Source: Spirochaetia bacterium (GTDB taxonomy: Bacteria > Spirochaetota > Spirochaetia > SZUA-6 > Bin103). From it: DNA of 64,000 nt. Each line of letters opens with the position of its first letter. Within the stretch, counting starts at the first letter, position 1. The stretch covers positions 6,752,001 to 6,816,000 of the forward strand of contig CBDBDQ010000005.1 in the NCBI GenBank assembly GCA_965203905.1, in the 5' to 3' direction. A model generated the notes under the pieces. That model did not search any database, was not told the DNA's origin, and saw only the letters and a list, made by a program, of their open reading frames with translations. This document shows positions 1 through 2,392 of the stretch, in pieces. A program made the translations under genes and the position numbers.

Positions 1-194
1 TCCTGGCGTTGCGGCTTGGATTGATCGCCAGGCGTGCCCGACACCCTCGCGGTAAAGTACTTGATGGTAAGGATCTCGTGATGCGGCTGCAGGACCTTCT
101 CGAACAGCGCGACCAGGTCCAGCCATTTCCATGAGGTCCCCTTGAGGGCGCCATAGTAGAGATTGAATCCATCTACATAGATGTAGGTGCGCAT
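1..194 (-). CDS. NYN (LabA/DUF88, PIN-like) domain ribonuclease, 5' part only (runs off window)
   Basis: Manual translation from ATG at 194: MRTYIYVDGFNLYYGALKGTSWKWLDLVALFEKVLQPHHEILTIKYFTARVSG...; YVDGFNLYY and KYFTA are typical NYN motifs. Not in ORF track because truncated. Confidence 0.85.
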   Translation of the reverse strand, partial: MRTYIYVDGFNLYYGALKGTSWKWLDLVALFEKVLQPHHEILTIKYFTARVSGTPGDQSKPQRQ

Positions 195-206
195 CGTCGC
201 CCGCGC

Positions 207-233
207 AAAATGCAAGGGCCTCCGAAGAGGCCC
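207..233 (-). terminator. Intrinsic terminator/attenuator-like hairpin before NYN start codon
   Basis: 7-bp GC stem, C(UUCG)G tetraloop, U-rich tail UUGCAUUUU. Confidence 0.55.
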
Positions 234-266
234 CGCGCCCTGCGCTCGAAACCGCAAGGGGTATCA
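207..266 (-). ncRNA. Candidate small leader RNA (two hairpins, second terminator-like) upstream of NYN gene
   Basis: Minus strand: CCCTTGCG-gtttcgag-CGCAGGG hairpin (238-260), then GGGCCTC-TTCG-GAGGCCC (216-233) followed by TTGCATTTT; lies between promoter and ATG. Confidence 0.5.
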
Positions 267-271
267 ACGAC

Positions 272-300
272 AATGTAGCTTCTGTCGGCAGCATGTTCAA
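272..300 (-). promoter_or_regulatory. Sigma70-type promoter for leader RNA/NYN gene
   Basis: TTGAAC (300-295), 17 nt spacer, TACATT (277-272). Confidence 0.65.
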
Positions 301-1241: not shown

Positions 1242-2392
1242 CCCGGCCCACGATTCCCGGCGCCGAGCTGGGGGATCTGCTGTGCCGGCTGATCCGCATC
1301 GACAGCTGCAACCCGCCGGGCCGCGAGGCGCCGGTCGCCGAGCTGCTCGGCGGCTGGCTGCGGGAGGCCGGGCTGGAGGTGGAGCTGGACCGCTTCGCCA
1401 CGGGCCGCGCCAACGTGGTGGCGCGCTGGCGCGGGACCGGCGACGAGCCCGCGCTGCTGTTCAACGGCCACCTCGACACCGTGCCGGTGCAGCGCGAGCA
1501 GTGGCGCCACGACCCGCACGCGGCGGTCGTGGAGGGAGACCTGCTGCACGGCCGCGGCACGGTCGACATGAAGGGCGGCGTCGCCGCGCTGGCGATGGCC
1601 TGTGCCGCGCTGGCACGGGCCGGCGTGCGCCTGCAGCGCGACCTGATCTTCGCCGGCACCGCCGGGGAGGAGGTGGACTGCTGCGGCTCGCAACGGCTGG
1701 CCACCCGCGACCTGGGACCGGTCGCCGCCCTGGTGGTGGGCGAACCCACCAGCCTGCAGGTGGTGACCGCGCACAAGGGGGCGCTGTGGCTGGAGATCGC
1801 CACCAGCGGCAGCGCCGCCCACGGCTCGATGCCGGAACAGGGCAGCAACGCGATCGCCGGCATGTGCCGCATCATCGAACGGCTGCAGGCGTATCGGCCC
1901 GCGCACCGGCCGCATCCGCTGCTGGGGCCGCCGACGGTGAACCTGGGGACCATCCAGGGTGGGGCCAAGGTCAACATCGTGGCAGACCGCTGTGTGCTGA
2001 CGGTGGATCTGCGGAGCGTGCCCGGACAGGACCACGCCACCCTGCTGCGCGAGGTGCGCGCGCTGGCGGACGCCGCGGCAGCAGCAGAGGCCGGCGTGAC
2101 CGCACGGGTCGAGGTGCTGACCGACCGACCGCCGATCGACACGGCGCTGTACGAGTCGCTGGTCGGCACCGCCCTGGAGGTAGCCGGACAGGTGCTCGGC
2201 GGGTCGCCGGCGGCGCGCGGCGTAAGCTACTTTTCCGATGCCTCGGTGCTCACCCCGGCGCTCGGCGTGCCGACGCTGATCTTCGGCCCCGGCGACGAGC
2301 GGCTGGCGCACCAGGTGGACGAGCACACCACCCTGAGCTCCGTGGCCGCGGCGGCGCGCTTCTACACCGCGCTGGCGCAGGCGTTGGGATAG
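1238..2392 (+). CDS. M20 family metallo-amidohydrolase (ArgE/DapE-like)
   Basis: NGHLDTVP, GRGTVDMKGG, GEE, VGEPT, AHGS, FGPG..AHQVDE motifs; GTGA overlap with upstream stop. Confidence 0.92.
   Translation: MTRPTIPGAELGDLLCRLIRIDSCNPPGREAPVAELLGGWLREAGLEVELDRFATGRANVVARWRGTGDEPALLFNGHLDTVPVQREQWRHDPHAAVVEGDLLHGRGTVDMKGGVAALAMACAALARAGVRLQRDLIFAGTAGEEVDCCGSQRLATRDLGPVAALVVGEPTSLQVVTAHKGALWLEIATSGSAAHGSMPEQGSNAIAGMCRIIERLQAYRPAHRPHPLLGPPTVNLGTIQGGAKVNIVADRCVLTVDLRSVPGQDHATLLREVRALADAAAAAEAGVTARVEVLTDRPPIDTALYESLVGTALEVAGQVLGGSPAARGVSYFSDASVLTPALGVPTLIFGPGDERLAHQVDEHTTLSSVAAAARFYTALAQALG

Follow-up and report, generated by a model that had tools for sequence, protein, structure and literature searches.

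In type III toxin-antitoxin systems, the closest described counterparts of the locus presented here, a single promoter is typically followed by a non-coding RNA, a Rho-independent terminator and an endoribonuclease gene; as set out in an excerpt of the source, these systems make up three families, namely toxIN, cptIN and tenpIN, and ToxIN and CptIN can do with one antitoxin repeat (PMC13682666). A second precedent is RCd22 of a Clostridioides difficile prophage, an RNA with conserved abiF motifs encoded upstream of abiF, which, according to the section of the preprint available, neutralizes AbiF by direct binding, in cis as well as in trans (bioRxiv 10.1101/2025.04.15.648962). On the protein side, an excerpt of Payne et al. 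lists HEC-09 as a single-gene defence candidate having an NYN domain with conserved aspartates (bioRxiv 10.1101/2024.01.29.577857). Here, we analyze a stretch of 64,000 nucleotides from a Spirochaetia bacterium (assembly GCA_965203905.1, contig CBDBDQ010000005.1, positions 6,752,001 to 6,816,000 of the forward strand), referred to as the window. At its very beginning, on the minus strand, a HEC-09 gene is preceded by a promoter and a short leader with two hairpins. Judged from the comparison of homologous loci, this leader is a new, well-supported RNA motif that is tied to the HEC-09 NYN nuclease and lies outside Rfam.

The locus resembles type III systems in the order of promoter, RNA, terminator and candidate toxin gene (window 300..192), which is kept in 80 of 80 loci, in the true tandem arrays of three to five units found in E. 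coli plasmid relatives, in having no conserved protein antitoxin at NYN loci, and in the occurrence of NYN modules on small plasmids, in prophages and in defence islets. It differs from them in that the RNA gene of actinobacterial NYN loci is convergent. With AbiF/RCd22 it shares, as far as that section of the preprint describes the system, a conserved structured motif upstream of the gene instead of a simple repeat array; on the other hand, an Abi_2/AbiD/F protein stands in place of NYN, the RNA motif is another one, and unlike the abiF motif, for which a family has been described, the NYN motif has no Rfam match. AbiF/RCd22 provides the best precedent, in functional terms, for a motif in a leader proving to be an antitoxin. 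The candidate toxin resembles that of VapBC in being a metal-dependent RNase of PIN-like type whose active site is acidic, and in being carried by mobile modules that decay frequently, but no protein antitoxin gene is conserved beside NYN and an RNA takes its place. Autoregulatory 5' leaders are known for the RNase genes rne, rnc and pnp, Regnase-1 acts on its own mRNA, and NYN enzymes such as Regnase-1 recognise stem-loops. The NYN locus is like these in that a structured RNA element is attached to the gene of an RNase possibly recognising it, and unlike them in having a strong terminator right after the promoter, arrays, or separate convergent genes. Literature searches returned no paper joining NYN with type III systems or RNA antitoxins, and a search on the NYN domain with an upstream RNA motif or intrinsic terminator returned nothing relevant; the pairing of a conserved RNA with an NYN ribonuclease does not seem to have been described previously.

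The elements of the locus are as follows (window coordinates).

300..295, minus strand: -35 box TTGAAC, read from the sequence.
17 nt, minus strand: spacer between the -35 and -10 boxes.
277..272, minus strand: -10 box TACATT, read from the sequence.
Near 265..262, minus strand: predicted transcription start, from the conserved distance between the -10 box and the motif.
265..206, minus strand: predicted small RNA or leader of ~60 nt, comprising a 5' tail (G)AUACCCC, hairpins P1 and P2 and a U-rich tail, from covariance model R1.
259..238, minus strand: hairpin P1, ~12 nt after the -10 box, with arms 259..252 and 245..238 and loop UUUCGA at 251..246.
236..212, minus strand: hairpin P2, one base after P1, its stem that of an intrinsic terminator and its loop UUCG.
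194..1, minus strand: 5' part of the NYN/HEC-09 gene, with ATG at 194..192, 11 nt past the tail, followed by MRTYIYVDGFNLYY.

A preliminary description of this DNA, made from the sequence alone, had proposed a near-consensus promoter (TTGAAC-N17-TACATT), two hairpins, a U-rich tail and the ATG of an NYN gene without a clear Shine-Dalgarno sequence and truncated by the window. All these parts are indeed present on the minus strand, and the gene continues for 487 nt past the first base of the window to encode 226 amino acids in total. 'Near-consensus' was too generous, as the promoter matches the consensus at only 8 of 12 positions and is missing from a consensus scan list for which 9 are needed. 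The GC stem with its UUCG loop stands; the first hairpin, described as bulged, is better drawn as an uninterrupted helix of 8 bp, one pair of which is U-G, its window copy having a G.G mismatch at the apex. The sequence of P2 reads GC-GGGGCCUC-UUCG-GAGGCCCU-U-GC, with a 3' arm GAGGCCC(U) and a stem extended by GC/GC, and is followed by the U-rich tail AUUUUG (UUGCAUUUUG). A terminator scan lists positions 234..215 with tail TGCATTTTGC, so that a GC-rich hairpin and a U-run, the features of an intrinsic (Rho-independent) terminator, are both predicted here. Between tail and ATG, the window copy (GCGGGCGACG-ATG) shows no clear Shine-Dalgarno sequence, whereas GGCGGG- or GGAG-like stretches are found there in homologues. 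As the preliminary description also stated, there is a single unit in the window and no repeat array.

Taken by itself, the window sequence does not lift the pattern above chance. One terminator-like site was observed in 3 kb against 0.7 in shuffled sequences, and the fold z-score of the leader is -2.2. Comparison with other loci, on the other hand, shows that the pattern is real. In a whole-genome search, R1 scores the window copy at 77 bits (E = 1.9e-20).

Homologous loci were collected by a protein-based scan with one genome per species, which returned 105 relatives, of which 80 loci with 51-85% identity were kept. More than 10 phyla are named in their record titles, phyla and classes including Binatia, Gemmatimonadota, Dehalococcoidia, Entotheonella, Thermodesulfobacteriota, Nitrospirota, Nitrospinota, Acidobacteriota, Spirochaetia, Alpha- and Gammaproteobacteria and others. 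Although these loci were chosen by protein similarity alone, R1 finds the motif directly upstream of NYN and on the same strand in every one of them (80/80), including four that were not part of its training. Likewise, blastn with the leader matches nearly all 80 loci, homology mostly starting at the base equivalent to window position 262.

A first alignment of 85 rows was made, for which six of 90 stretches were left out (two same-place duplicates, one genome present twice, one distant paralogue, one large loop insertion and one stretch out of register); the trimmed alignment has 83 rows, a decayed remnant and a degenerate copy having been removed. Unaided, RNAalifold recovers both hairpins with 16 pairs, nine of them with compensatory changes. 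When the named structure is imposed on the 78 distinct rows, 96.9% of cells are paired and both-side changes occur at 10 of 18 pairs (35 cells), a result reached by none of 500 shuffles on any measure; slid controls pair 40-64%. Both hairpins contribute, with both-side changes at 5/8 pairs of P1 (94.7% of cells paired) and at 5/10 pairs of P2 (98.6%). The P1 loop UUUCGA, the 5' CCCC and the U-run are each conserved to at least 90%, and the family consensus of the P2 terminator is UGCUUUUUU. The frequency of G-U pairs (U-G in 42/78 rows at pair 9-27, G-U in 33/78 at pair 34-59) assigns the structure to the sense strand. The preliminary description had asked in advance for a conserved, covarying structure upstream of NYN homologues and for an Rfam search of the leader: the structure is there in all 80 loci with covariation at 10 of its 18 pairs, and no known family was matched, Rfam 15 giving nothing for the leader at E up to 10.

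In 52 loci with pairable codons, identity to the window averages 88% in the leader core, 42% at four-fold degenerate sites and 74% for amino acids, and leader identity lies above that of four-fold sites in 52/52. As leader identity exceeds that of four-fold degenerate sites, the comparison indicates that the leader RNA is under purifying selection, and that recent transfer is not what keeps it alike. NYN proteins 65-85% identical to that of the window occur in metagenome-assembled genomes (MAGs) of more than 10 phyla, many of whose titles name sponge-associated lineages (Entotheonella, Palauibacter, Porisulfidus, Foliamicus and others), a distribution that points to a recent cross-phylum spread of the cassette within one community type. 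Two or three tandem NYN genes, each with its own motif copy, are seen at three loci (L078, L079 and L082), and two motif copies precede one NYN gene at another (L075).

Several candidate explanations of the leader were tried and rejected. A coding leader or N-terminal extension, such as the open reading frame (ORF) starting from TTG at 257, is contradicted by 1-nt, 2-nt and longer insertions in the alignment, by a start codon that is not conserved and by variation that tracks base pairs, not codons. A terminator of the upstream gene does not apply in the window, where the upstream neighbour is divergent (plus strand, from about 375) and the promoter lies in between. A high-copy repeat, either a repetitive extragenic palindrome (REP) or a miniature inverted-repeat transposable element (MITE), is not consistent with only four matches in the bacterium's own genome and one to five in five other genomes.

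Promoter positions are conserved as well. Of 81 distinct regions upstream of homologues, 60 contain a promoter-like pair matching at least 8 of 12 positions, against 2/81 controls taken 150-200 nt further upstream; 48 of these 60 promoters have a spacer of 17 nt. The -10 box, commonly TAGATT, ends 6 nt ahead of the first motif alignment column in 38/60, that of the window included. With the promoter position so conserved, the transcript should begin at (A)ACACCCC and would be ~60 nt long if P2 terminates. Since the start codon follows the U-run after only 10-20 nt, a second promoter does not fit in between and NYN mRNA would arise by read-through only. In sequencing runs seen as contigs only, many related contigs stack on the leader with loose ends at its 5' border in one RNA run (0.04 share) and in four runs of unrecorded kind, in a view that displays neither starts, ends nor strand.

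The RNA is also found away from the leader position. In three of four actinobacterial records the motif is convergent at the NYN 3' end, on the opposite strand: in a Mycobacterium prophage (52 bits), a Paenarthrobacter plasmid (44 bits) and a Frondihabitans plasmid (27.6 bits); in the fourth record it was not found at E up to 1. The Mycobacterium copy has a promoter-like TTGACA-N18-TAGCCT at the usual distance, and the NYN homologue of this prophage sits between integrase and repressor. The link between RNA and gene thus outlasts rearrangement and is therefore hard to reconcile with a purely cis-acting leader; the convergent arrangement argues for an RNA that may act in trans.

A gene-blind scan of metagenome and viral contigs with a 21-letter degenerate core returned 86 loci, of which R1 confirmed 40, the other 46 being chance matches in GC-rich coding sequence. 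An intact NYN start lies 20-160 nt downstream of 18 of the 40 confirmed motifs; the remaining 22 (about 10 distinct sequences) are remnants or stand in other contexts. The remnants retain promoter and motif, whereas NYN has been deleted from its start codon or a point shortly past it (L119, L184, L132 and L154 type). Elsewhere, the motif precedes an unassigned 142-aa gene in a phage-like context with an adjacent terminase-like ORF (L150, L153), lies directly behind higBA, with the same sequence in four viral and three metagenome contigs, or follows a GH108 lysozyme gene directly (L203). No NYN gene was found within 1-3 kb of the orphan motifs on viral contigs (L200-L205 from IMG/VR; L150, L153). 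In two MAGs, a second motif copy (58 and 75 bits; L068 2188-3277 and L070 5019-5621) precedes a 65-71-aa ORF and a Fic-domain gene resembling PADLOC SoFic. The NYN gene had been called 'solo' in the preliminary description, which is apt insofar as it has no conserved partner protein; the motif, for its part, is not exclusive to NYN genes.

Loss of the gene with retention of the RNA is also observed in the window's own genome and among relatives. In the former, a remnant (G000:C5:2943439-2943545; L002 about 1501-1607, minus strand) combines a motif of 59 bits with frameshifted first NYN codons, followed by unrelated sequence. Among 60 relatives, motifs of at least 50 bits occur in four genomes, all with NYN matches; three of these have the motif (82.7, 81.6 and 67.2 bits) next to an NYN gene that is truncated or contains a stop. 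Conversely, an intact NYN without the RNA was not seen among the 80 loci. This asymmetry, in which the RNA appears to outlive NYN and the reverse is not seen, fits what would be expected of a toxin and its antidote.

Relatives of the NYN protein are widespread on mobile elements: tblastn identified homologues with 27-47% identity in 443 PLSDB plasmid records (207 from Klebsiella) and in three phage records, and nine of nine plasmid and phage proteins tested match the HEC-09 profile. The 66-nt leader itself gave zero blastn matches in PLSDB plasmids and INPHARED phages, and Rfam 15 found only RNAI and chance matches in nine plasmid and phage loci. Several of the plasmids have leaders of other kinds. 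A 4.6-kb ColE1-type plasmid of E. coli carries, in this order, an extended -10 promoter, a tandem array, a terminator AACCGCAGATGCGGTTTTTTTT, a GGAG Shine-Dalgarno sequence and the start codon of a HEC-09 gene. Its array is resolved by Tandem Repeats Finder either with period 33 (2.6 copies, 96%) or with period 29 (3.3 copies), the unit being CCTGTGGCGTGCCGCAGGCGAAGAAACAACCCC. This array leader is present in 17 plasmid records (E. coli, Salmonella and Klebsiella, ColE1-type), in which array length varies from 3.3 to 4.8 units of 29-33 nt, one record having 4.8 copies. Each unit is a 7-bp hairpin whose 3' arm CCGCAGG and 5' flank ACA(A)CCCC are identical to those of P1, the last unit showing compensatory changes (CCUACGG/CCGUAGG); on the last unit plus terminator, R1 scores 16-17 bits. 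In two plasmids (L207 1324-2148 and L215 105-491; NZ_CP122759.1 and NZ_OW968114.1), the annotated NYN coding sequence starts at an ATG inside the -10 box and runs in frame through array and terminator, the frame remaining open even with a 30-nt-longer array. Because the annotated ATG falls within the -10 box, a coding sequence running through the hairpin array is probably an annotation artefact.

On Phaeobacter and Acetobacter plasmids, the array-type hairpin occurs once, with a terminator, upstream of NYN; a Leptospira plasmid carries the motif class of the window (37 bits); and plasmids of E. coli SE11, Klebsiella, Erwinia, Xanthomonas and Thiothrix have a third leader class around GCGATTAAGTT with a terminator at its end. 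Overall, 14/17 plasmid and phage HEC-09 loci have a terminator-like hairpin with U-run immediately ahead of the start codon, five flagged by script and the rest by eye. ProQ/FinO-family proteins bind terminator hairpins of small RNAs, and a gene for an RNA chaperone of this family directly follows NYN, in convergent orientation, on a Thiothrix subterranea plasmid (L214 1898-2413). On 3.4-kb plasmids from E. coli and Serratia, NYN and an antitoxin gene of the VbhA family are the only genes; together, these NYN/VbhA plasmids and the Fic operons of the MAGs hint that NYN and Fic modules may be linked.

The protein encoded in the window matches the NYN domain (PF01936; E = 1.2e-8, 36 bits against a gathering cut-off of 24.2), its sole Pfam match, and PADLOC HEC-09 (PDLC04163) over its full length (E = 1.2e-43; residues 2-208 align with positions 3-203 of the profile, which has 203); the PADLOC search did not match a ToxN/AbiQ-type model. 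Residues D8, G9, N11, E110, E111, K112, D115, D140 and D142 are invariant in 13 diverse homologues, and of the acidic ones among them, D8, D115, D140 and D142 are those we take to be catalytic. A sequence search of solved structures gave a best E-value of 0.14, which is not usable. Most close relatives have 207 aa and end in ...KPxxW; the window protein of 226 aa has 19 extra residues, which looks like read-on past a lost stop codon.

When the flanking ORFs of the 80 loci were all compared with one another, no family beyond NYN and overlapping ORFs occurred in more than 7/80, and no protein partner is conserved beside NYN. In the window's genome, the next gene on the same strand (G000:C5:6749965-6751437; L003 11965-13437, minus strand) has a 490-aa product that combines pentapeptide repeats with an FRG domain and matches PADLOC PDC-S15 (E = 9e-63). 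Together with NYN it forms a low-GC islet (GC 0.53-0.63 against about 0.70 in the surroundings), and the pair looks like a small defence islet. At other loci, NYN is not regularly accompanied by the FRG gene. At two further NYN-domain genes of this genome, the start codon is likewise preceded by a promoter-like site, then a hairpin, then a terminator, with weak R1 scores (26.7 and 21.7 bits).

Taken at sequence level, the locus is best described as a putative two-part module consisting of a small RNA gene and the gene of an NYN (PIN-like) ribonuclease of the HEC-09 family. In the model we favour, a sigma-70-type promoter would initiate transcription about 6-7 nt past the -10 box, and the transcript would fold into P1, with its UUUCGA loop and 5' CCCC tail, and then into the strong intrinsic terminator P2. 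Most transcripts would stop at P2, leaving the ~60-nt RNA in excess and NYN mRNA to be made by read-through only. The RNA would be the cognate partner of the enzyme; most likely P1 would bind it and keep the nuclease inactive, much as type III antitoxins do. When transcription stops or the RNA is lost, as upon phage infection or loss of the element, the nuclease would be freed. That the RNA is a partner of the NYN nuclease acting like a type III antitoxin is a reading to which we give an even chance. A discrete, abundant RNA species, its binding to and inhibition of the enzyme, toxicity and phage defence are what we infer. The context of the locus (a low-GC islet with PDC-S15, a prophage homologue and 443 plasmid records) would fit a role in defence.

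A number of observations weigh against this type III-like reading. The likeness put forward in the preliminary description stands for the order of parts, and for the arrays of E. coli plasmid relatives; it does not extend to a tandem array in the window, where the RNA is a single hairpin unit fused to a terminator, nor to the toxin, which is an NYN/PIN-like nuclease (NYN being the only Pfam match) and not a member of the ToxN, CptN or TenpN families. The resemblance of P1 to the E. coli repeat unit consists of short shared strings and weak model scores (14-17 bits). In the window copy, the U-run (UUGCAUUUUG) is interrupted, in contrast to its conservation in homologues, and the minimum-energy fold favours an alternative, extended P2 pairing. 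As noted above, the motif is not confined to NYN: it also precedes the small-ORF/Fic operon and the 142-aa gene, and it stands behind higBA and GH108 like an ordinary terminator. Leftover RNA after gene deletion would also be seen with a plain promoter and its leader. Lastly, in the excerpt of Payne et al., the tested HEC-09 representative gave no protection from the phages tried, and neither an RNA component nor toxicity is mentioned there, the protein gene being treated alone and not, as here, as a module of RNA and gene (bioRxiv 10.1101/2024.01.29.577857).

The rival that survives best is a purely cis-acting attenuator, in which the leader would throttle or autoregulate NYN, the nuclease or a host factor binding or cutting P1 and thereby altering P2 termination or mRNA stability, with the short RNA as a by-product. 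The presence of the motif in the 5' untranslated region at 80/80 subfamily loci is what such an attenuator would predict, as is a terminator placed 10-20 nt ahead of the start codon, which expression must cross; moreover, RNase genes with autoregulatory leaders exist. We nevertheless regard it as rather unlikely. The convergent motif of three of the four actinobacterial records has its own promoter-like site and lies outside the 5' untranslated region of NYN, and promoter-bearing copies persist after NYN deletion. In addition, no conserved antiterminator pairing was seen: pairing of the P1 3' arm with the P2 3' arm, judged by eye, is not kept in a clade in which P1 pair 10-26 is inverted without a matching change in the P2 3' arm. 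A strong promoter followed by a strong terminator would also be a wasteful route to low expression.

Alternatively, the RNA could be a cofactor, an activator or a dedicated substrate of the enzyme, forming a ribonucleoprotein to which it gives specificity, or being a functional product matured by NYN. The evidence that links RNA and NYN applies equally to this alternative, the conservation of the P1 loop and of the 5' CCCC tail goes well past the needs of a hairpin, and the E. coli plasmid arrays imply processing to units. Retention of the RNA where NYN has been lost, the reverse not being seen, is better accounted for by an antidote, and a single-stranded tail of about 6-7 nt is too short for a guide, for which reasons we think it improbable that the RNA serves the nuclease in this way.

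Slightly more improbable still is a generic mobile terminator or insulator, in which P1 and P2 would form a portable unit shielding a harmful gene from read-through, P1 having no specific partner. The viral-contig motifs directly behind higBA and the lysozyme gene, and motifs ahead of non-NYN genes such as the Fic operon, are what one would expect of such a unit. Against this, a conserved promoter lies between the upstream gene and the motif, so that the terminator ends the module's own transcript, and the P1 loop is conserved to at least 90% across phyla. The copy number is merely one to five per genome, and among the 60 relatives matches of at least 50 bits are restricted to four genomes, all with NYN matches. 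A riboswitch or other ligand-sensing leader, for which a terminator directly upstream of a gene would be the usual expression platform, or a DNA-level site (recombination site, transposon end or palindromic repeat), which the evident movement of the gene across phyla (record titles) might suggest, is very improbable, given that a hairpin of 8 bp whose loop has 6 nt does not reach the size of any known kind of aptamer, that alternative pairing is not conserved and that unrelated leader classes and tandem arrays serve one gene family, and, for a DNA-level site, that G-U pairs (A.C on the other strand) are common, that promoter and U-run flank the motif and that copy number per genome is low.

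Returning to the antitoxin-like reading, a broader proposal, which we hold only tentatively and are inclined to doubt, is that HEC-09 NYN nucleases and their terminated leader RNAs may constitute a fourth family of type III toxin-antitoxin or abortive-infection systems, with a PIN-fold toxin and a distribution over more than 10 phyla and hundreds of plasmids. Its antitoxins would range from one unit to five-unit arrays and be convergent in Actinobacteria, and the viral orphan copies located behind phage genes would be phage-borne antitoxin mimics disarming the nuclease.

Independently of function, a ~60-nt RNA motif with covariation, absent from Rfam, is added to those described, together with a simple testable model that is accessible through existing E. 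coli plasmids. If the antitoxin-like reading were true, the type III class, which, as divided in the excerpt of PMC13682666, has hitherto comprised three families with ToxN-like toxins, would gain a PIN-like/NYN family whose antidote is an RNA, and would thereby be joined to the very large world of PIN/NYN nucleases, so far known to be paired only with protein antitoxins. The same reading would likewise explain HEC-09, a candidate in thousands of genomes and 443 plasmid records that, in the part of Payne et al. referred to above, was inactive when tested as a single gene. Should the viral orphan copies be decoys, they would provide a second case of RNA mimicry directed against an RNA-controlled suicide nuclease.

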